Below are positions 5,122-50,893 of a stretch of 64,000 bases of DNA, piece after piece (the stretch's first letter is position 1; every line of letters starts with the position of its first letter). The DNA lies in assembly GCF_030013205.1 (NCBI RefSeq), contig NZ_CP122648.1; one strand, written 5' to 3'. This DNA is from Escherichia coli (lineage in GTDB: Bacteria > Pseudomonadota > Gammaproteobacteria > Enterobacterales > Enterobacteriaceae). A program made the translations under genes and the position numbers. The notes under the pieces were generated by a model. That model did no database searches, was not told the origin of the DNA, and worked only from the letters and a program-made list of their open reading frames with translations.

Positions 5122-5304
5122 TTACCCCTCCATGATTTTTACTGCGCATTTGTGGGTTAATCGCCCCTGTTCATTCGTGCGGCTGTACTCCATGCGGCTG
5201 GCAGCACGCAGGGCATCATCACAGGTCTGATATTCCCTGACATGAAAAAACTGACGAACGTCGCCGCTCTGGCAGTTAATCAGGGTGATAAGGAGCTTAA
5301 ACAT
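5122..5304 (-). CDS. hypothetical small protein, about 60 aa (MFKLLITLINCQ...)
   Basis: ORF track 5122..5382; ATG overlaps stop of upstream 57-aa ORF (ATGTTTAA). Confidence 0.4.
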   Translation of the reverse strand: MFKLLITLINCQSGDVRQFFHVREYQTCDDALRAASRMEYSRTNEQGRLTHKCAVKIMEG

Positions 5305-5470
5305 TGCACGCCTCCCGGATACGAATACGGGCAACAGAGACCAGACGGGATGCCGGAAGCAGGGCGCGCGCTTCGCGCTCACTGGCGGCGGTAACGGTAT
5401 GAAGGCGGATATTTTTACCGTGGCACTGCATAAAGCGCCAGATAAAATCAGGGCGTGTTGATATAGCCAT
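5297..5470 (-). CDS. hypothetical small protein, about 57 aa (MAISTRPDFIWRF...)
   Basis: C-terminal part of track ORF 5297..5824; ATG preceded by AAGGAG; upstream part of the track ORF judged noncoding. Confidence 0.4.
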   Translation of the reverse strand: MAISTRPDFIWRFMQCHGKNIRLHTVTAASEREARALLPASRLVSVARIRIREACNV

Positions 5471-5594
5471 TTTGGCGGCTCCTTTGTCTAATTTACGGAG
5501 TCTCGCCAGCACGCTGCTAAACATGGTGGCGGGACGTAACAGGGTTAGCAGACTGGTGACAAAGAAACCAGCAGGCCTTACGGCCTCCCCATTA

Positions 5595-5718
5595 CGCCCC
5601 GCCATAATACGGGAAAGGGTGGTATTACGGGCACAAAAAAACCGCATTACGGAAATATAGCGGCTACCCGCTTTGTCAATCAGGCTGCTAAACCCGGCAC
5701 CCGCTTTATGAGGTGCGG
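5595..5718 (-). ncRNA. conserved three-block noncoding element, copy A (hairpin, then T7-terminated block, then ATTATGGCGGGGCG on minus strand); candidate sRNA or leader attenuator
   Basis: blocks CGCCCCGCCATAAT, GCACAAAAAAACCGC and CAGGCTGC.AAACCCGGCACCCG.TT..TGAGGTGC recur in same order and similar spacing at 59946-60075. Confidence 0.4.
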
Positions 5719-5865
5719 GCAAACGATACGCCATGACAAAAAAGCGAGTCAAGCAATATTGCAAATTATTTTTGCGTGATTGCGCTGAGTAATTGATTTT
5801 TAAGAGTAAAAAAGCCATAATCATTTCTGCCTATTATTTCTTATTGTTGGTTTCAGGTGCACTAA

Positions 5866-5925
5866 ATGCACATCCTTGACTGGTTGGCTCGCTAGCTTTA
5901 GCGAGCTTCTTTTTTGCTCTGCAGC
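5866..5925 (+). terminator. two stem-loops (GTGCA-CTAAA-TGCAC; GCTCGCTAGCTTTAGCGAGC) followed by TTCTTTTTT; intrinsic terminator or sRNA 3' end
   Basis: seen in sequence; no convincing ORF on plus strand upstream. Confidence 0.45.
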
Positions 5926-6377
5926 CAGTACCCGGCCTCCTTCCCTCACATGTAGTCATGTGCTCATTCCAGTCAGGTGGATAATGCTGTATTACCGGAC
6001 ATCCGGTTATGATGTTTAAAGCGTTTGTTTGTTTATGCCACGTGGAGAATATACCCACGCCGCCATTACTTGTATTTATCATAACAGTTCATCCAATTCG
6101 GTTAATGTAACCGGAATAACTCAATTTCATACACTGTAAATAAATGCTGATTTTAAACTTAGCTCCTTGGAATATATTTCTTACGTGTGACGTACAGGTG
6201 AAAATATCCCTCTGATAGTCCATTTTCTTTTATTGGGTCACATCTTTTTACTCCGGTTCCCTTAACAAGGGTAGAGCATCTTTTAAACCATGAATGCATC
6301 TTTGGTTAAGTGATGTTTCTTATTGAATGAAATGTTTAGGCGCATATCGCGCCATGCTGACTATAAAGTGAAAATAA

Positions 6378-37462: not shown

Positions 37463-38356
37463 CTATTTCCAGTTACAAGCAGCTTGAAGTGGTTTTAGCG
37501 CGTTTGACAGGCCGTTTAAATTGAAAGTTGCACTTACAGGGCTCTCATTATAAGGAGTTATTTTTGTATACATTTTGTTTGAGTTGGCTAGTTTTCGGAT
37601 GAAATCAATGTCATTACCTTTATAAAAAACAGCCTTTGTATCTGTAGATACTAGCCAGTTTCGCTCAACTGCTTTCTGTTTATCAAGACGATAAAGCATG
37701 CTGGTTTGTTCAAGGCCTAAATATACATCCCAACTAAGAAATACTTCGGTTTTCTTTTCTCGGCAAGCTATAAACAGAGTGGGAGTAACCGCTTCTCCAA
37801 ATGGAGTTCTGATATAATCATCACTTTCTAACGATAAAATTACATTTTTCGAATCATCAATTGGCGATGTAGTAATGGATGTGTGCCATTTTCCTACATC
37901 TGTGGCTTTCTCTAATTTTGATTCAGCTTGAACAGCTTTATCCTGTGGGAATAGTTTATCGTAGCAGTTTAGTCTGGCTTCTTTATCATTTTCTGCTCGG
38001 CATTTAGATATCTCAGAAAGATTTGGTTGCTGAGCCTCTGTTGTTACTGGCTTTTCCGTTTTAGATTTTGAGTTTACAGATGGAGTAAATGTTGGAGAAA
38101 AAAAACGATCATAACAAGATAAACGTCTGTCATCATCTTTCTCATCAGGGCATTGATCTCTGCTTTCGAATTTTTCAGCAACTTTCGTTCGAGTCGGTTG
38201 TATTGACTTATCGTAACAAGAAAGTCTGTCTTTATTATTTTCTATTGCTCGGCACTGGAGTACTGCATTGAAGTTATTATGTTCAGTTGCTGCGTGAACA
38301 GGCAGTACACTAATTGATATAAATGATGCACCTATAGAAAAAATTATATTTTTCAT
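37463..38356 (-). CDS. secreted protein with three tandem Cys-containing repeats (RLSCYDK-type) and a C-terminal domain; function unknown
   Basis: 297 aa; signal peptide MKNIIFSIGASFISISVLPVHA; AT-rich; not in the remembered K-12 flk neighbourhood. Confidence 0.6.
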   Translation of the reverse strand: MKNIIFSIGASFISISVLPVHAATEHNNFNAVLQCRAIENNKDRLSCYDKSIQPTRTKVAEKFESRDQCPDEKDDDRRLSCYDRFFSPTFTPSVNSKSKTEKPVTTEAQQPNLSEISKCRAENDKEARLNCYDKLFPQDKAVQAESKLEKATDVGKWHTSITTSPIDDSKNVILSLESDDYIRTPFGEAVTPTLFIACREKKTEVFLSWDVYLGLEQTSMLYRLDKQKAVERNWLVSTDTKAVFYKGNDIDFIRKLANSNKMYTKITPYNESPVSATFNLNGLSNALKPLQAACNWK

Positions 38357-38360
38357 TTTG

Positions 38361-38702
38361 TTATCCTTTTGGTTTAGTAAGAAATACTAAAATTCCGATA
38401 ATGATATCGCCAATAACCCATAAACTTCCAATGGTAATTAAACCTAAGCCTGTACCAATAACTGCACCGGCTTTTTCGGCATCGGATGTAGCATTATTTA
38501 TTATTTCACTAGTGCCTCCCAGTCCAACTAAAAGCGTATAGATCATAAAAATATTAAATAATATAAATATCCACTTGATGAGCTTTCCAAAAAATGAACG
38601 CTTAAGTTTTTTTATTTGTTTACCGCAAGCAGGGCAATACAATGCTGAATCGCTCACCTCTTTCTGGCATTCAGGACATTTGATTAATGCCATGTAATCC
38701 AC
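38361..38702 (-). CDS. zinc-ribbon membrane protein (CPECQ...CPACG then two TM helices), GTG start
   Basis: 113 aa; starts 5 nt after upstream ORF. Confidence 0.55.
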   Translation of the reverse strand: MDYMALIKCPECQKEVSDSALYCPACGKQIKKLKRSFFGKLIKWIFILFNIFMIYTLLVGLGGTSEIINNATSDAEKAGAVIGTGLGLITIGSLWVIGDIIIGILVFLTKPKG

Positions 38703-38954
38703 CTCCTTTGGATCAATACGAGTTGATATTTGTTACAAAACATTTTGATTTTATCAGATTTTTTTTTATTGATAAGTGTCAATTGATTAGCTGGTATAGA
38801 GTGAGACATATAGAAGGGCAGATCTGTATCAGTAGTGATGCAAAAATCCCACAGTTTCATGGAATTTTTGCATTTAGAGCCGTGAGATAGGGTGCCTTAT
38901 CGACCTTACCCTGGCAACCGATTGACGGGGGATTACTCCCCCGTCGCGGTTTCC

Positions 38955-39095
38955 TTACTGCTTACACTGTAAGAACGCCGCAAACTCCGCTCCCCAGAAA
39001 CTCATCCGTATTTCGCACAGCGAACCGTGCAACATCCAGATGATGAGGATTACCGTCACGCAGAACGTGATGGCTGTAAGCGATTTTTGCGACAT
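38955..39095 (-). CDS. Hok/Gef-family type I toxin-like peptide, 46 aa (not in ORF track)
   Basis: hand translation MSQKSLTAITFCVTVILIIWMLHGSLCEIRMSFWGAEFAAFLQCKQ; AAGGAG 8 nt upstream; N-terminal TM helix plus SLCE and AAFL motifs as in HokA. Confidence 0.5.
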   Translation of the reverse strand: MSQKSLTAITFCVTVILIIWMLHGSLCEIRMSFWGAEFAAFLQCKQ

Positions 39096-39285
39096 AGCAC
39101 TTGCTCCTTTTCCGGAGAGGCGCTAACCTTTCACTTGCTTAGGGTAGACGGTTAGGGCCTCGGTTAAACAAAAGTGTTTTCCGGGGCCTTTCCACATCTG
39201 GCCTTCGGGTATTCCCTCCGACCATCAGCCGAAAGGCACCCGCGCGTAATCTATCGCTTTTTTGTTACTCCGGCAATTCTGCTTG

Positions 39286-39546
39286 TTAATTCTGAGGTAA
39301 AGGCAAACTCATCTGATTGTTTCCCCTGTGTGAAGCTGGTAGCTCATGCCACGGGATACCTTCTGAAGAGTGAACGCCGGAGGCGTGTTTCGATGTGAAT
39401 TTATGGAAAGCTTCCAGTGTTGAGAAGCATACGCCGCATTCCAGATTGTTACACTGGTAATACTTTTGCCGCACGGTGTTTGAATCATTTTCCGGACGAC
39501 TTGTGCGGATACGGGCAGATGCGCCACAAAGCGGACAACGGAACAT
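39286..39546 (-). CDS. ogr: Ogr/Delta-family zinc-finger late-gene activator
   Basis: N-terminus MFRCPLCGASARIRTSR...YYQCNNLECGVCF matches the Ogr Cys4 motif. Confidence 0.85.
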   Translation of the reverse strand: MFRCPLCGASARIRTSRPENDSNTVRQKYYQCNNLECGVCFSTLEAFHKFTSKHASGVHSSEGIPWHELPASHRGNNQMSLPLPQN

Positions 39547-39737
39547 AGCGACCTCCCTTAACGTGGTGTTGCCGCTATTCTAGATTGTACGTTCCCTAAT
39601 TCCAACTAACAGCTCGCTCTGTGCGAAGAGTGAAAATTGAACTTTCAATAGTTGTTGAACTTTCATACATCCAATGTGAAAATTCATACGTTCATAATAG
39701 TTAAAATTTAAAATATTGTATATCAGGTGAATAAAGC

Positions 39738-40760
39738 ATGGGAAGAGATATAACGCTGTACCCTAAAAAAGCAACTAGAAACGAACTTAAAAATTACCTT
39801 GAAAATTTAGGTTTTAAAAGGTGTAAACATTTGTGGGAATGGCCCCAAGGAACGTTGAATTACTCTTGGTTTGATGATACGGACTTCAAATCTACAGATG
39901 GAGTTTCGGCTGATATATATCCTGTTTCAAATGACGAATTACACATATCTGGTAATAAATGGGCATTGCATGTGCGTAATTTATATAGCGCTAGTTGGCA
40001 TGATGTAAAAATGCTTAATGATGTTCTAAAAGGCGCAAGGAGTCTTTTTGGTGGAACACTTATAGGTGATTATGGGAAAAATAGGTACGCTCCTCTATGG
40101 AAGGATTCTAGTAGTCCGATCAGTCGTGGCATTTCTTCAATATTTAATCATGTCCATCATGAGATTTCCGCTGTTAAACATGCCTTACCTGAACCTTCTA
40201 TTAAATTAAACCTACCGGAAGATGGCGGCTTATCCGAATACTTTGATTACATGCAATGTATGGATCCCAGTAGAGTTATATATAATGGATTAGTACCTTT
40301 TGCGGTTGCTATGTTTGAATACTTTTTCTCTAGAGCTTTTCAAATACTTATAAAGTACGATCCTTTCGCAATAGCAAAAAGAACATCGTATAAGCAAAAA
40401 GTTGATTTTGATATTCTGCTTGAGATAGAGAAAGGAAATATTTCAATAGAAAGTGTTATTGCAAGAAATTACACTTTTCAAAACTTAACCCACCTAAACA
40501 AAGCATATAAAGAGTGGCTGGATATAGATGTGAGAGCGATTCTTTATAAGAAAAAAAGAATTGGAAAATCAGTTGATTTTCTTGAGAATCGAATTTCTGA
40601 AATCATACAATATAGACATGGGATAGTTCATCACTTTGAGTTGGATAGGACCTTAAATCGGGATGGATATATTCATATATTAGATGCGCTAGAAAAAAGC
40701 ATAATTGAATTTATCCATTACATAGAAGGCAAATACAAATTTAAATTAAATGCGTATTAA
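39738..40760 (+). CDS. hypothetical protein, 340 aa, strongly AT-rich accessory gene between ogr and D; no recognisable domain
   Basis: ORF track; opposite strand to flanking late genes; own AT-rich upstream region with direct repeats; hairpin terminator after stop. Confidence 0.6.
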   Translation: MGRDITLYPKKATRNELKNYLENLGFKRCKHLWEWPQGTLNYSWFDDTDFKSTDGVSADIYPVSNDELHISGNKWALHVRNLYSASWHDVKMLNDVLKGARSLFGGTLIGDYGKNRYAPLWKDSSSPISRGISSIFNHVHHEISAVKHALPEPSIKLNLPEDGGLSEYFDYMQCMDPSRVIYNGLVPFAVAMFEYFFSRAFQILIKYDPFAIAKRTSYKQKVDFDILLEIEKGNISIESVIARNYTFQNLTHLNKAYKEWLDIDVRAILYKKKRIGKSVDFLENRISEIIQYRHGIVHHFELDRTLNRDGYIHILDALEKSIIEFIHYIEGKYKFKLNAY

Positions 40761-40788
40761 GCAATCAACCTTACATAGGGATGACAAA

Positions 40789-40815
40789 GTCCGCTTCTGA
40801 CACGGAGCGGACCGT
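40789..40815. terminator. hairpin GTCCGCT-N10-AGCGGAC between convergent 340-aa gene and D
   Basis: seen in sequence. Confidence 0.5.
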
Positions 40816-40880
40816 CGTTTATGTTTAATTCTATACTGTAAACTTGCCAGTTTAAGTTTGAGCTAATATGTCTAAGTTGC

Positions 40881-41990
40881 TCACTCTGTTTCTGCTATCC
40901 ATTCCGGGATTTTTGCCTCAAGCTCAAGCTGTGTGGTAAAGCCGCTGTTATCAATGGTGTGCTCGGCTTTCGCAATAATCCAGTCCTGATTATCAATCTC
41001 GCTTTTAAATCCTGTTACCGTGCCATGCATTTCGGGGTAGAGTTCTGCACGTCCACGCACCAGCGTGATGGAAAACGATGCGGCTCCGCGTTGTAGCTGC
41101 TGCCACTTTGCCGCCGCTGCGCGTCTTGCTGCCTGCTCGTTCTGATAAGTCTTGCGTAACACAAACACATTGCCTTCCGCGCCTTCCATATAATCACCTT
41201 CACGGCTGCTGCTTTTCTCCTTTTTGGGTTTTGGCGGTTTGCGGCGTTTCACGCTGACTTTTTTCTTTTTCCCGTAATTAAGATCAAGCCAGTAAGCGCG
41301 TACCCCCGTATACGCCTCGCGGTCAGCAATGCGGAACTGATGGCGATCGCCGCTGCTGCGTGTGATGGCGAACGATGGCAACGGCTGGCCCTGTGCGTTC
41401 ACGCCACCGCCGGGCATGATGAATAACAGATTACCGCTTTTTACCGTGGTGATTGCGCCCAGCATTTCCGCCATGCGCGTAAGGAAGGACATGTCGCTTT
41501 CTTCAGTCTGGTCGGCGTGGTCGATTTCGATATCCATCAGCATTTCGCTGATTTGCGGTTTCAGGCCGTACCGATGAGCGATGGCGGATACCACACGTTC
41601 AACGGTCACATCATGCCAGGACGCCTCACGTTTAACATTAAATTCATCCCGAAAATCTGCGCTTCTGGCTGAAACAGTCAGCCTGTCCGGCGGTCCTTCG
41701 TGAGCGATTTCATCAATAATGTAAGTGCCTTTTTCTGTCAGCGGTTCCCCTTTCCAGCCAATGAGAACCGTCAGACGCGCGCCCCGTGGCGGTAGCTGCA
41801 ACTGGCCATCGGCATCATCCAGCGTGATGGTGAGCTGGTCCGCCTCAAATCCCCGGTTGTCGGTCAGTGACAGGCTCATCAGGCGTTCTGCCACGCCGGA
41901 CAGCGTTTTACCCTCGGCGAGAATATCAAAATCCGGCATTTTCACGGGGTCTGTGCCCTGACTGAGCAATTGCATGGTGGTGTCGGTCAT
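40881..41990 (-). CDS. D: P2 gpD-like tail protein (late control D)
   Basis: similarity to P2 D (LSLTDNRGF..., DGPPD, RSADFRD); start chosen at ATG 41990 with GAGGGA RBS, track ORF extends to 42122. Confidence 0.85.
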   Translation of the reverse strand: MTDTTMQLLSQGTDPVKMPDFDILAEGKTLSGVAERLMSLSLTDNRGFEADQLTITLDDADGQLQLPPRGARLTVLIGWKGEPLTEKGTYIIDEIAHEGPPDRLTVSARSADFRDEFNVKREASWHDVTVERVVSAIAHRYGLKPQISEMLMDIEIDHADQTEESDMSFLTRMAEMLGAITTVKSGNLLFIMPGGGVNAQGQPLPSFAITRSSGDRHQFRIADREAYTGVRAYWLDLNYGKKKKVSVKRRKPPKPKKEKSSSREGDYMEGAEGNVFVLRKTYQNEQAARRAAAAKWQQLQRGAASFSITLVRGRAELYPEMHGTVTGFKSEIDNQDWIIAKAEHTIDNSGFTTQLELEAKIPEWIAETE

Positions 41991-42147
41991 CTGTTCCCTC
42001 CCTGTGCGGCATGGTCGCATGTGCGTGCGGAGGGGGTTACTGCTTTTTGTTGTCGCCGTGGCGGGAGAATAGCGCAGGGGTGAGATTACGCGCGTGGTGG
42101 GTGATGATTGTTGCTGAATCATTTAACGGATACAAGGGGCTGAAGCT

Positions 42148-47238: not shown

Positions 47239-47733
47239 ATGGCCATGATGATGATCTACGGCATGTTTGTTTTTGAGCTGCGCACGCTGCCGCATCAGCA
47301 GTTACAGCAAAACAAAAGCTGGCGGCATGTGAAAAATGAACGCGTTAACCGTTCAGCAAGCTGGCAGTATATCGGTGCAGGTGATGATCGCATCGTTCTT
47401 TCTGGTGTGCTTTATCCTGAAATTACAGGTGGCGAAGTGTCGCTGTCGCTGCTGACCACGCAGGCGTATACAGGACGCCCCTGGCCTCTTATTGATGGCG
47501 TCGGGCAGATTTACGGCATGTATGTCCTGACCGAAACGAATACGACCCGTTCCGAGTTTGATCGCTACGGTAAGGCGAAAAAGATAGAATTTTCACTGAC
47601 CCTTGAACGCTGTGATGAGGATTTGCGGGAGCGCCTGCAATCCTCATCGTTCAGCGATATGCTGTCCGGCTTCAAAGATAAAGTGACATCATCCCTTAAC
47701 AGCGCGGCCAGTTCAGTTAAAGGGCTGTTCTGA
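47239..47733 (+). CDS. U: P2 gpU-like tail protein
   Basis: 164 aa; N-terminus and WQYIGAGDDRIVLSGVLYPEITGG match remembered P2 U. Confidence 0.85.
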   Translation: MAMMMIYGMFVFELRTLPHQQLQQNKSWRHVKNERVNRSASWQYIGAGDDRIVLSGVLYPEITGGEVSLSLLTTQAYTGRPWPLIDGVGQIYGMYVLTETNTTRSEFDRYGKAKKIEFSLTLERCDEDLRERLQSSSFSDMLSGFKDKVTSSLNSAASSVKGLF

Positions 47734-47903
47734 TTTAATGCTGGCCACTCATACCCTCATACCTGGTAATAAGTGGCCAGTCTTAACACTCACCATTTGA
47801 TTGCACCAGTGTTAACGATTTGTTACTGGACATCAGGCACGCTGGATAGCCAGTAGAAACATACCATTAAAATTATTACAATAATTGGTCACATGATTAT
47901 CTT

Positions 47904-48467
47904 ATGCTGAATAATAGAGATATGAATATTAATGAACTTAAAGATTGTATTCACTATGAAGTAATCGGTAGCGAGCGTCCTTTCTCCTGGCGAAAGGCAA
48001 TTGTTCGCGCAATAAAACATAGAAGAGTTCGTTATTTATTTTGGTGGCGCATAGCCAAATACCTTTTTGATAAAGGCGGATACTGTCGGAAGATTGCGGG
48101 GAAAATAGAACGTTTCATTCTTGATAAATATAATGTAACAGTCCCTTTAACTGTAAATATAGGGAAAGGCTTTGATATTTCTTATCTCAACAGTGTTGTT
48201 ATCGGTCACAAAGTAACAATCGGTGAAAATTGTTCAATAAAACCAGGGGTAACTATTGGGCTGCGTGGTGATTTTAATGATATGGATATTGTTATAGGAC
48301 ATAATGTGACCATTGGTTGTAATGCCACCATTCTTGGTGGCAAAGTGCGTATAGGAAACAATGTCACAATAGGTGCTCATGCATTGGTATTGCATGATAT
48401 TCCAGATGATTCAACATTCATCACTAAATTTCAGTCTGAAGTTATCTGCTCGTCCTCCCGCACATAA
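47904..48467 (+). CDS. hexapeptide-repeat acyl/acetyltransferase; AT-rich accessory gene, possible surface-polysaccharide modification
   Basis: 187 aa with repeated [LIV]GxxxxIG hexapeptide motifs; 3' end overlaps tfa by 37 nt convergently. Confidence 0.7.
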
Positions 48468-49048
48468 CCCTGATTCATCAGCTCTGGCCATACGATATCC
48501 GGAGCTGTACTGGTGTCAATTCTACTCACTAATACTCTGTATTTTCTCCAGGAATCCAGTTGTGAATTTTCCTCGTTTGTTGCTATTTCAAGATTAACTG
48601 CATCCTGCAGAATTGCGATGTTATCTGTTGCTTCCTGGATCAACCTTGCCTTTTTCTCTTCCGCTTCCCGTATCCGAAACAGTTTTTCTGCTTCCTCATC
48701 CTTCACCCAGGATACGCCGTCCCACTTCTGATACTCCCCTGCTGGCGACAACCAGGTGACATTCTCTGGTAGCGGTCCGGGTTCAGAAATAAACAACGCG
48801 TCCCCCGATGCCACGTCATAGACCGTTTTACCACGATGGTCTTCAACAATATTCCACGATTCATTTTCACTGTTAAAAACTGCCACAAAGCCAGCAGGAA
48901 TTTCCGGTGGGGCGATATCTGTAGAATTGGCTGGCAGCCCTGTATGAGGTGGAATATATGCGTCACCTTCACCAATAAACTCATTAGTTCCGGCCAGCAG
49001 GTTATAAATTTTTACAGTACGTGATTGTTCACTCATTCTGAATGCCAT
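48431..49048 (-). CDS. G: tail fibre assembly protein (lambda Tfa / P2 gpG type)
   Basis: 205 aa; N-terminus [34 protein letters not shown] matches remembered lambda Tfa. Confidence 0.9.
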
Positions 49049-49400
49049 TATGCAAGCCTCACAATATAATTAAATGCGATGTTTTTAACGGTGTTTTCCG
49101 CGTTACCAGCAGCGTTAACGGTGATGGTGTGTCCATGTGAACCAATCGCAACAGAGTGCGTATGAGCGCCAATAGCTGATTGAGTGTGACGCCATACGCC
49201 CCACGGACCATCAGTGCCATTCCACTTATTGGCGAGTTTACGCATGTATACATTGCCGTCTCTCGTGATAAAACGTTGCGTGCCTGCAAAATTGCCAGCT
49301 GCAAAAACCTCAAGCACACCGACAGCATTATCTTCCGGGAAATTTTTCTCCAGTGTTGCGTTGGTGGATGTTGCTTTAGACCAGATGCCAGTGCATCAGC
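49048..49400 (-). pseudogene. H: C-terminal fragment (about 117 codons) of tail fibre protein (gpH/Stf type), 5'-truncated
   Basis: frame open from stop near 49400 to ...[19 protein letters not shown]; no start codon or N-terminal domain. Confidence 0.75.
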
Positions 49401-50033
49401 GTTCGCATACTTACCCGCGTGCGCCACGGTGTTGTCCATGTTACGGGAGGTCAGCGTCACGTCATTCATAACGCGTTCGCTGGCGTCGGTTCTGATGTGC
49501 TCCAGCCACCCCACGTTAACGTCCTGAAGCAACTTGTTGGTGCTGAAGTTGGACTCATCCGCGTGAGACGTGCCGTTGAAACCGATCATGATTCGGTCAA
49601 GCGCCACCTGTCGGGCAATCTGTGCGCTGATGCGGGACTGAAAATCGCTGTGTGCCGACCAGGCATCAAGCTGCGGATACGAAATAAACGTGTCGTAGTT
49701 CACCTGTTCGCACTGGTATTTGCGGTTTTTCAGATCAACCACGTTATTCGGGTTACGGCGTTTTGTTCCGTCATAACTGGTATTCGTGCGCGCAATCGGT
49801 CCTGTGGTATCCAGGAGGATTTTTTCGCCCTTCTGGTCGGTCACGCCGATCACGTTAATTCTTTTTGTAAATTCGGTGCTTTCCTTTGAGGCGTTTTCAA
49901 AACGCTGCTGTACCGAGGGTTCCACGGTAAATCGCGATACCAGTGCGGAAACCGGGATATTGTTAAGCGACGCCTGCTGCGCCATATAGCAACCCAGCTT
50001 GTTGCGGGTAATATCTGACATCACCAGATTCAT
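49400..50033 (-). pseudogene. N: major capsid protein gpN, N-terminal about 210 codons only, fused out of frame to tail-fibre fragment
   Basis: homology to P2 N (FTVEPSV, NKYxCEQ, IMxGFNG) ends near HAGKYANADALASG; track ORF 49059..50033 continues in a non-homologous frame. Confidence 0.75.
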
Positions 50034-50056
50034 AAAAAATTTGCTCCTTTGTCTTA

Positions 50057-50893
50057 TCAGAAGTCAGCCAACTGGTCGGAGGCTGCGCCTGTTGCGGTGA
50101 ACCGGTTCTGCGGATCGCCGTCCTGCGTGCGCAGTTTTTCCTTCAGTTCTGCCAGCTCTGTGGTCAGTAAAGTGATTTTCTGGCTGTCCTGCTGATGGCG
50201 GGTTTCCAGCACATTAAAACGGTCGATAATGTCGGCCTGTGACGTTGCGACACCTTCCACCGCTTCCTGAATACGGGAGAAACTGGCGTCATCCGCTTTG
50301 CGGCCACGGCCAATAATCCCCATAACGCGGTTAAACCACTGGGTGCCTTCCTCCTGACGTTGTTCGGTGAGTTCGATAAGTTCTGACTCCATAGCGGCGG
50401 TAAACATCGCCACGTCTCCCTGCTGACAGTTGAATGTCATCAGTTGCATACGTTGTTGTGCCGCAAAGGCCAGACGTTCCGTGCCCAGGCTGGCGGGGGT
50501 GTCGGTCATTGCCAGCCCGCGCAGGTAAGGGCCTCCCGTGATGGTTGACTGTGGTTCCAGCTCAATACTGGAGTAAATTTTTTTACCATCGTTAAGCAGG
50601 GACATCATGCGAGCGGTCGGCTCAATTTCGGCATACAGTGCCGTGCGACCTGCCAGCGGGCCATCGGTTATGTCTTCGGTGCTCAACCCCACAACATCGC
50701 CCATAGCGGAAAACTCGCTACCGGGGAGTGGTGACAGGATGTGCTCAATATTCACACGTGCACCATAAACGGACGGGTTATAACTGGTGGCGGCAGCTTT
50801 CAGCATGTCGCCGTTGATTTCGCGCCCGTCTGCCGTTACACCGGAGACAGCCACGCGAAACTTTTTGCGGGATGTCTTTTTTTCATTAGCCAT
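50057..50893 (-). CDS. O: P2 gpO-like capsid scaffolding protein/protease
   Basis: start chosen at MANEKK with GAGGGG RBS; track ORF extends to 50926. Confidence 0.85.
   Translation of the reverse strand: MANEKKTSRKKFRVAVSGVTADGREINGDMLKAAATSYNPSVYGARVNIEHILSPLPGSEFSAMGDVVGLSTEDITDGPLAGRTALYAEIEPTARMMSLLNDGKKIYSSIELEPQSTITGGPYLRGLAMTDTPASLGTERLAFAAQQRMQLMTFNCQQGDVAMFTAAMESELIELTEQRQEEGTQWFNRVMGIIGRGRKADDASFSRIQEAVEGVATSQADIIDRFNVLETRHQQDSQKITLLTTELAELKEKLRTQDGDPQNRFTATGAASDQLADF

Follow-up and report, generated by a model that had tools for sequence, protein, structure and literature searches.

Between the ogr and D genes of a prophage related to phage P2, a 64,000-nt stretch of Escherichia coli DNA (contig NZ_CP122648.1 of assembly GCF_030013205.1; hereafter the window) carries an open reading frame (ORF) with an ATG start at 39738-40760 on the + strand. 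On balance, the 340-aa product of this gene is probably a self-contained, single-protein HEPN ribonuclease (RNase), carried as swappable cargo at the ogr-D junction and most likely protecting the lysogen by abortive infection. The protein has two predicted domains, a family-specific N-terminal domain and a C-terminal HEPN domain of the RiboL-PSP type, and is labelled 'hypothetical' in all sources. The initial annotation, made from the sequence alone, had described the gene as an orphan without any recognisable motif. Neither description was borne out, since at least 341 clusters at 50% identity are related to the protein, and a Pfam HEPN_RiboL-PSP match is accompanied by an invariant Rx4H motif; the gene belongs to a widespread and strongly conserved HEPN family. 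The same annotation had placed it in a defence-rich class of horizontally acquired prophage accessory genes, and this assignment was sound, being supported by the low GC content of the gene, by a polymorphic junction and by homologues in accessory positions of other phages.

The sole Pfam match of the protein was HEPN_RiboL-PSP (PF18735), covering residues 181-329 (model positions 29-189 of 191) with an independent E-value of 3.7e-4. Among 53 divergent members of the family, PF18735 was found in 32 at E<=1e-3 and in 44 at E<=0.1, with a best value of 7.9e-9, and most close homologues carry a precomputed PF18735 assignment. Conservation was determined on the alignment of these 53 sequences, which reaches down to about 20% identity. 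Only five columns were invariant, G55, D89, E194, R293 and H298, with N183 and H294 nearly so. R293 and H298 delimit the putative catalytic HEPN motif, R293-H-G-I-V-H298 (Rx4H), encoded at 40614-40631 (+) as read from the codons. In the AlphaFold2 model (predicted local distance difference test, pLDDT, 81.4; predicted template-modelling (TM) score, pTM, 0.73), an alpha/beta domain comprising residues 1 to about 125 (pLDDT 95; 39738-40112, +) is followed by a long linker helix (residues 127-149) and by an all-alpha HEPN domain (residues about 167-333; 40236-40736, +), and full-length Foldseek matches to the model were annotated RiboL-PSP-HEPN. The protein thus combines the profile match, the Rx4-6H motif and the all-alpha helical-bundle fold by which membership of HEPN and of PF18735 is recognised. 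From sequence and model, it is assigned to the RiboL-PSP-HEPN family of the HEPN superfamily and is a predicted RNase.

The N-terminal domain, in turn, was not matched by any Pfam family, and a Foldseek search with this domain alone returned only its own family, followed by weak matches to DUF1828 and DUF3822 (TM about 0.45). When fusions of the domain with other effectors were sought, the hits were all members of this family in truncated or frameshifted form. Throughout the family the two-domain architecture is constant, and the N-terminal domain is confined to this family. The conserved residues of the domain are S52, G55, S86, D89, N94, F104-G105-G106 and G113, and it is proposed to act as a sensor or regulatory domain. 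Neither the single protein nor the family profile matched any solved chain in sequence searches of the PDB, and scans of the 340-aa protein against PADLOC, NCBIfam and PHROGs yielded nothing significant.

The family is large and broadly distributed. A word-indexed search returned 295 clusters at 90% identity, and the best 120 of them, from Pantoea, Proteus, Shewanella, Aeromonas, Pseudomonas, Halochromatium and Methylococcaceae, shared 64-99% identity along all 340 aa. When 1.84 billion representatives were searched exhaustively with a profile, 341 clusters at 50% identity resulted, most of them 330-350 aa long and matched end to end, and Foldseek added full-length relatives in Bacteroidota (Maribacter, Bacteroides, Mucilaginibacter), Firmicutes (Agathobacter) and Leptospira. 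Overall, hundreds of full-length relatives were found at 20-87% identity in Proteobacteria, Bacteroidota and Firmicutes. The E. coli and Maribacter proteins are about 66-69% identical, and one 90%-identity cluster comprises copies from Shewanella, Gallaecimonas and Halomonas that are more than 90% identical. In E. coli, the gene is carried by about 1% of complete genomes, including enterotoxigenic (ETEC), sequence type 131 (ST131) and extraintestinal pathogenic (ExPEC) strains. The 64 carriers, whose lineages include ETEC, ST131 and IHE3034, have one full-length chromosomal copy each, 98-100% identical.

In six orthologue comparisons, synonymous sites were saturated (proportion of synonymous differences, pS, 0.64-1.0), with proportions of nonsynonymous differences (pN) of 0.10-0.24; the only unsaturated orthologue pair gave a ratio of nonsynonymous to synonymous substitution rates (dN/dS) of 0.07. 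The gene is therefore real, intact and under strong purifying selection. Homology to a phage structural or housekeeping protein and decay in relatives, two of the findings that the initial annotation had named as contrary to its proposal, were not encountered, and the gene was full length in 64/64 carriers. In addition, its GC content was below that of the host in 7/7 genomes examined.

The genomic contexts of the homologues are varied. Relatives at 81-83% identity occupy accessory positions of other phages: in locus L028, from a P2-like phage, next to its genes for tail fibre and tail-fibre assembly (a Z/fun-type position); in locus L027, at a prophage end adjoining umuDC-like genes and near a tail-fibre gene; and in a Pantoea lambdoid prophage, after a lambda-P-like replication gene. 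Others lie outside recognisable prophages, in small chromosomal islands of Shewanella, Aeromonas and Halochromatium. A search of a plasmid collection found no homologue, and in a phage collection the sole homologue record was the prophage-derived 500465-2. A conserved partner gene was sought in six contexts of different genera, and none was common to them.

Two of the contexts contained neighbours of separate interest. In the metagenomic locus L011, a 233-aa gene at 5236-5937, just upstream of the homologue, holds LVFLNSYVAFETFLSDLFLAYINK, which resembles the first HEPN helix of the family, and its product may be a second HEPN-like protein; BLAST gave no match to any other neighbour. In the Pseudomonas locus L007 (7121-10167), the homologue is found in an integrative element with a DUF927 primase-helicase and an MvaT-like gene, where it adjoins a convergent UvrD-helicase gene and a 276-aa gene that are maybe another defence pair.

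In the window, the junction that holds the gene is bordered on the left by ogr, coding for an ogr/Delta-like zinc-finger late activator (39286-39546, -), and on the right by the gene of tail protein D (late control D / VgrG-related; 40881-42122, -). As the initial annotation had stated, an AT-rich gene lies between the two on the opposite strand: its GC content is 0.337 versus 0.494 for the whole window, and a 300-nt profile fell to 0.30-0.37 within the gene, against 0.52-0.55 for ogr and D. The annotation had taken canonical P2 as its reference; this needs qualification, the host prophage being a Gemsvirus-type member of Peduoviridae and not P2, whereas its description of the gene as inserted between ogr and D was correct, because in an empty allele of the same lineage (strain C7) only 42 nt separate the ogr start codon from the D stop codon, with nothing between.

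Occupancy of the junction was surveyed by using ogr and D joined as the query against 5,426 complete E. coli genomes and examining an evenly spaced sample of 60 rows. An identifiable ogr-D junction was present in 46 of these, with the empty-allele span in 27 (about 60%), the 340-aa gene in 3 and other inserts in 16. Elsewhere the slot was occupied by a DUF2971 protein matching the PADLOC candidate PDC-S31 (5.6e-27), a PIN-domain protein, 221-aa and 487-aa proteins of unknown type, a DUF3800 protein in O104:H4, a YecA-family protein in O26:H11 and another strain, insertion sequence (IS) elements, and a complete SIR2-HerA system (PADLOC 2.5e-155 and 2e-252). The comparison across related prophages that had been suggested at the outset thus showed a junction that is mostly empty and otherwise filled with exchanged cargo, SIR2-HerA included. 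The ogr-D junction is thus a slot for variable cargo, validated defence systems among it, and by such a location, alongside SIR2-HerA and the candidate PDC-S31, the 340-aa gene bears one of the operational marks of an anti-phage defence system. In the hotspot literature searched, this junction is not named among the P2 hotspots.

The borders of the slot are short and conserved. A repeat of about 9 bp, TCTAGATTG at 39579-39587 on the left and TCTAAGTTG at 40871-40879 on the right, just before the D stop codon, was recognised by comparison with loci L014-L018; a TCTAAGTTG-like repeat brackets the cargo in every occupied allele and is present as a single copy in the empty one. The left copy overlaps the -10 element of a promoter-like site for ogr (TTGGAA, 17 nt, TAGAAT; 39605-39577, -). 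This TTGGAA/TAGAAT site is also the conserved left end common to the occupied alleles, their right end being GAGCTAATRYATCTAAGTTG, also given as GAGCTAATRYAT, and between these ends the cargo genes are otherwise unrelated. Two origins are compatible with this arrangement, duplication of a target site or deletion through the bracketing repeat, followed by exchange of cargo via the shared ends.

The closest phage record to the prophage is Escherichia phage 500465-2, in which the FI-FII-E-T-U block runs opposite to D, and the same layout was seen in every related E. coli locus opened. The window is chromosomal, and its sequence over the region is 100% identical to that of the swine ETEC strain K_EC180. 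The prophage is defective: as annotated by RefSeq in K_EC180, which is identical here, the major capsid gene is truncated and joined to tail-fibre fragments (window 47700-50100), and most head-completion, lysis and baseplate genes are deleted from it. After tail gene U lies a gene for a hexapeptide-repeat acetyltransferase (47904-48467, +), a position at which related prophages have a serine O-acetyltransferase-like gene or a DNA invertase.

Since the protein has a putatively catalytic HEPN half, a fixed N-terminal domain with invariant residues and no partner gene, it is proposed to be a self-contained abortive-infection RNase, following the logic of HepS, ApeA and DARNA. From these features we infer RNase activity, infection-triggered activation, sensing by the N-terminal domain, an RNA target and an anti-phage phenotype. 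In the mechanism envisaged, a promoter of its own, on the other strand from the late genes, would provide the lysogen with the protein, which would be kept inactive before infection. When another phage infects, the family-specific alpha/beta domain would sense a cue. The composite Rx4H active site, formed in a HEPN dimer or oligomer, would thereby be released to cut cellular RNA, by analogy tRNA anticodon loops or mRNA, so that translation and phage production would stop. The strong conservation of the N-terminal domain suggests, speculatively, that this cue is conserved rather than a variable phage protein. It is possible, albeit doubtful, that the protein founds an as yet unnamed family of single-protein abortive-infection RNases, with an N-terminal domain that recognises a conserved cue other than a protein, for instance a small molecule derived from a nucleotide or a structure in a nucleic acid. 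If so, cue and domain would form a trigger-sensor pair not yet described for HEPN immunity.

Several points weigh against an abortive-infection RNase. For the E. coli protein itself, Pfam gives a weak match, and the confidence of the AlphaFold2 model is low right around the catalytic motif (residues 272-301). PADLOC 2.0.0, run on the protein and ten distant relatives, gave no match save one chance-level hit, and no experimental report on any family member was found in the searched literature. A consensus scan detected no strong + strand promoter upstream of the ORF, and expression in the lysogen is accordingly a presumption. Finally, the conservation of the family is unusually high for a defence gene, which could mean a housekeeping-like role on mobile elements.

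An unlikely but arguable alternative is that the RNase serves the phage that carries it, as a moron: an addiction or stabilisation toxin, an enzyme processing or degrading host or phage transcripts during induction, or a weapon against satellites such as P4. The gene is indeed carried by phages at several different positions, it has stayed intact even in the defective prophage of the window, and it adjoins the late regulator ogr near a hok/sok pair. Nevertheless, the chromosomal-island homologues of Shewanella, Aeromonas and Halochromatium lie outside recognisable prophages, most prophages of the same lineage have an empty slot, and the alternative occupants include a validated host-defence system, SIR2-HerA. 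Moreover, the gene faces away from the late operon, and with this orientation it would not belong to the lytic programme. Protection of the lysogen is the reading retained.

The region upstream of the ORF was also analysed. The direct repeats reported there by the initial annotation (39629-39690) were confirmed by reading the sequence, as two repeat types with two copies each: GTGAAAATT at 39630-38 and 39676-84, and GAACTTTCA at 39639-47 and 39657-65. The cluster is, however, better described as three 10-bp palindromes, TGAAnnTTCA, at 39638-47, 39656-65 and 39677-86, with spacings of 18 and 21 nt. This pattern has 3 matches in the 64-kb window, all of them in the cluster, where 1.6 would be expected scattered window-wide. 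No such palindromes were found upstream of the orthologues from other species, which makes them a property of the E. coli cassette and not of the family; phage 500465-2 retains only two of the three. A candidate sigma-70 promoter (39655-39683, +) was recognised by eye as TTGAAC, 17 nt and TGtGAAAAT, an extended -10 element. It scores 8/12, under the scan threshold, and is a weak, putative site. Two of the three palindromes overlap it in an operator-like arrangement, and the palindromes may be operator sites. A good Shine-Dalgarno sequence, AGGTG, is located at 39725-39729 (+), 8 nt before the ATG. Downstream, the gene had been credited with its own hairpin terminator, and a hairpin with a 9-bp stem is present at 40789-40812 (+), 28 nt past the stop codon; it is terminator-like, with a weak T-run, and may be part of the slot rather than of the gene, because its flank is partly common to the DUF2971 cargo allele (L014).

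These repeats bear on a second alternative, an AbiF-like or type III-like toxin-antitoxin system in which a constitutively toxic HEPN RNase is neutralised by a small RNA transcribed from 39629-39690, with depletion of this RNA leading to defence or to prophage addiction. RiboL-PSP-HEPN has been described as distantly related to AbiD/AbiF, the AbiF of C. difficile has an upstream non-coding RNA antitoxin (PMC12373285), and three imperfect repeats of about 20 nt stand directly upstream of the ORF. However, an Rfam search of 38800-41000 at E<=10 gave no abiF motif, and within 39250-40900 no RNA family at all, the only hit being sok further to the left. Against shuffled sequence, the fold of the leader does not stand out (z = -1.24), and no terminator separates the repeats from the ORF. 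Tandem repeats are absent upstream of six orthologues, as are the palindromes, and 10-bp palindromes at 18-21 nt spacing over a candidate promoter look more like protein operators. A toxin held by such an RNA is therefore considered improbable, and an RNase activated on infection is kept as the explanation.

Equally improbable is a third alternative, in which the protein is a non-catalytic, HEPN-like binder, that is, a nucleotide- or ligand-binding regulator that is neither an RNase nor toxic and takes no part in phage defence. Non-catalytic binders exist among the HEPN families, the low model confidence around the motif and the weak Pfam E-value would agree with it, and very high cross-phylum conservation is atypical of fast-evolving immune genes. 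On the other side, R293, H298 and E194 are invariant and N183 and H294 near-invariant in the 53 divergent members, whereas catalytically dead HEPN families usually lose Rx4H (PMC3710099), and the mobile, low-GC, hotspot location fits a conflict system. That the ORF is merely kept in a decaying or non-functional remnant of acquired DNA is effectively refuted already, for although the prophage of the window is itself defective and no strong promoter was found at the gene, the dN/dS of 0.07, the 340-aa length kept in hundreds of relatives and the full-length copies in 64/64 E. coli genomes of diverse lineages leave such decay next to no probability.

On the far side of ogr, a toxin gene of the hok/gef family (38955-39095, -) lies beside a sok-like antisense RNA (39082-39241, -), the latter detected by Rfam at 51.9 bits (E 3.7e-10), just below the gathering score. 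The hok/sok pair adjoins ogr in every related prophage opened. Between flk and hok, an AT-rich gene pair (37463-38702, GC about 0.33-0.38) encodes a 297-aa protein with a sub-threshold match to VasI/TagO, associated with type VI secretion systems (75.9 bits versus a cut-off of 124), and a 113-aa zinc-ribbon membrane protein. Neither protein matches PADLOC, and the pair may be part of the prophage end or a separate islet.

If an anti-phage phenotype is confirmed, the defence repertoire of E. coli would be extended by a HEPN immune protein that is compact (340 aa), partner-free and equipped with a new sensor domain, from a family that spans several bacterial phyla and is missed by the PADLOC 2.0.0 models. 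The extreme conservation of the family makes the question of its trigger tractable, and the conserved residues of the N-terminal domain are targets for mutagenesis. Likewise, the ogr-D junction of Gemsvirus-type P2 relatives is a further cargo slot, a small and well-delimited place in which to look for more systems; it already holds SIR2-HerA and a set of uncharacterised single genes (PIN, DUF3800, DUF2971, YecA-like, 221-aa and 487-aa).

Compared with known systems, the protein is closest in its C-terminal half to the RiboL-PSP-HEPN family (PF18735), whose model it matches and whose Rx4H it keeps, and its relatives are named 'RiboL-PSP-HEPN domain-containing protein' in UniProt. The founders of that family are fused to an endoRNase L-PSP domain or encoded in operons with ParB, and the family has been called distantly related to AbiD/AbiF (PMC3710099). 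Unlike these founders, the 340-aa subfamily begins with an alpha/beta domain peculiar to it, about 125 aa long, and lacks a partner gene.

As regards abortive-infection systems, three single proteins invite comparison. HepS, from the Gifsy-1 prophage of Salmonella, senses the siphovirus tail-tip protein J, cleaves tRNA anticodons and forms a tetramer, and its homologues are defined as standalone single-domain proteins of <250 aa (PMC13043305). Like HepS, the 340-aa protein would be a prophage-encoded, single-protein HEPN system in an accessory-gene position, and its homologue in the Pantoea lambdoid prophage holds the equivalent position, after the replication genes; identity with HepS was rejected on length and on the presence of two domains. 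ApeA is a protein of about 580 aa with three mostly helical domains, a split HEPN and decameric or dodecameric assembly, which acts by abortive infection, cleaving anticodons, and is switched on when deoxydinucleotides bind at a distance from its active site (10.64898/2026.01.26.701840). In common with ApeA (Gao et al. 2020), the present protein is a single chain with a non-HEPN N-terminal part and a C-terminal HEPN domain, and two Foldseek matches to its model bear InterPro ApeA labels; in contrast, its N-terminal domain is alpha/beta and its HEPN contiguous. Identity was rejected on this architecture, on the lack of a PADLOC ApeA match and on the absence of ApeA_NTD1 and HEPN_Apea in the 53 members at E<=0.1. 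DARNA (PD-T7-3; 456 aa), with an N-terminal HEPN and a C-terminal helical domain that binds single-stranded DNA (ssDNA), is activated by ssDNA presented by SSB, the phage protein that binds ssDNA (10.64898/2026.02.22.705581). It is a parallel in so far as one E. coli protein unites a HEPN anticodon nuclease and a distinct sensor domain, and was rejected as an identity since the domain order is reversed, HEPN being C-terminal in the 340-aa protein, and PADLOC gave no PD-T7-3 match. Common to all three systems is a HEPN dimer that is kept inactive until a cue, sensed by the non-catalytic part, turns it on (PMC13043305; 10.64898/2026.01.26.701840; 10.64898/2026.02.22.705581).

AbiD/AbiF (Abi_2, PF07751) are likewise phage-borne HEPN abortive-infection proteins, and the AbiF of C. 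difficile is neutralised by an upstream non-coding RNA with two abiF motifs (PMC12373285); repeats precede the 340-aa gene too. Identity was rejected because Pfam Abi_2 was not found in the 53 members, Rfam gave no abiF motif and the orthologues lack upstream repeats. A HEPN-MNT (HepT/MntA) toxin-antitoxin system of type II/VII was rejected as well, as the slot contains no other gene and no neighbour was conserved among the six contexts. With respect to its location, the slot behaves like the defence hotspots of P2 and P4, in which cargo is swapped between conserved core genes, many defence systems share a locus, and near-identical phages carry different cargo (PMC9122126; 10.64898/2026.02.27.708500). 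The P2 hotspots described are gpA-portal, Z/fun after the tail-fibre genes, and positions near int or att (PMC9122126; 10.64898/2026.02.27.708500), whereas the slot that houses the 340-aa gene is ogr-D, in a Gemsvirus-type relative rather than in P2 itself.

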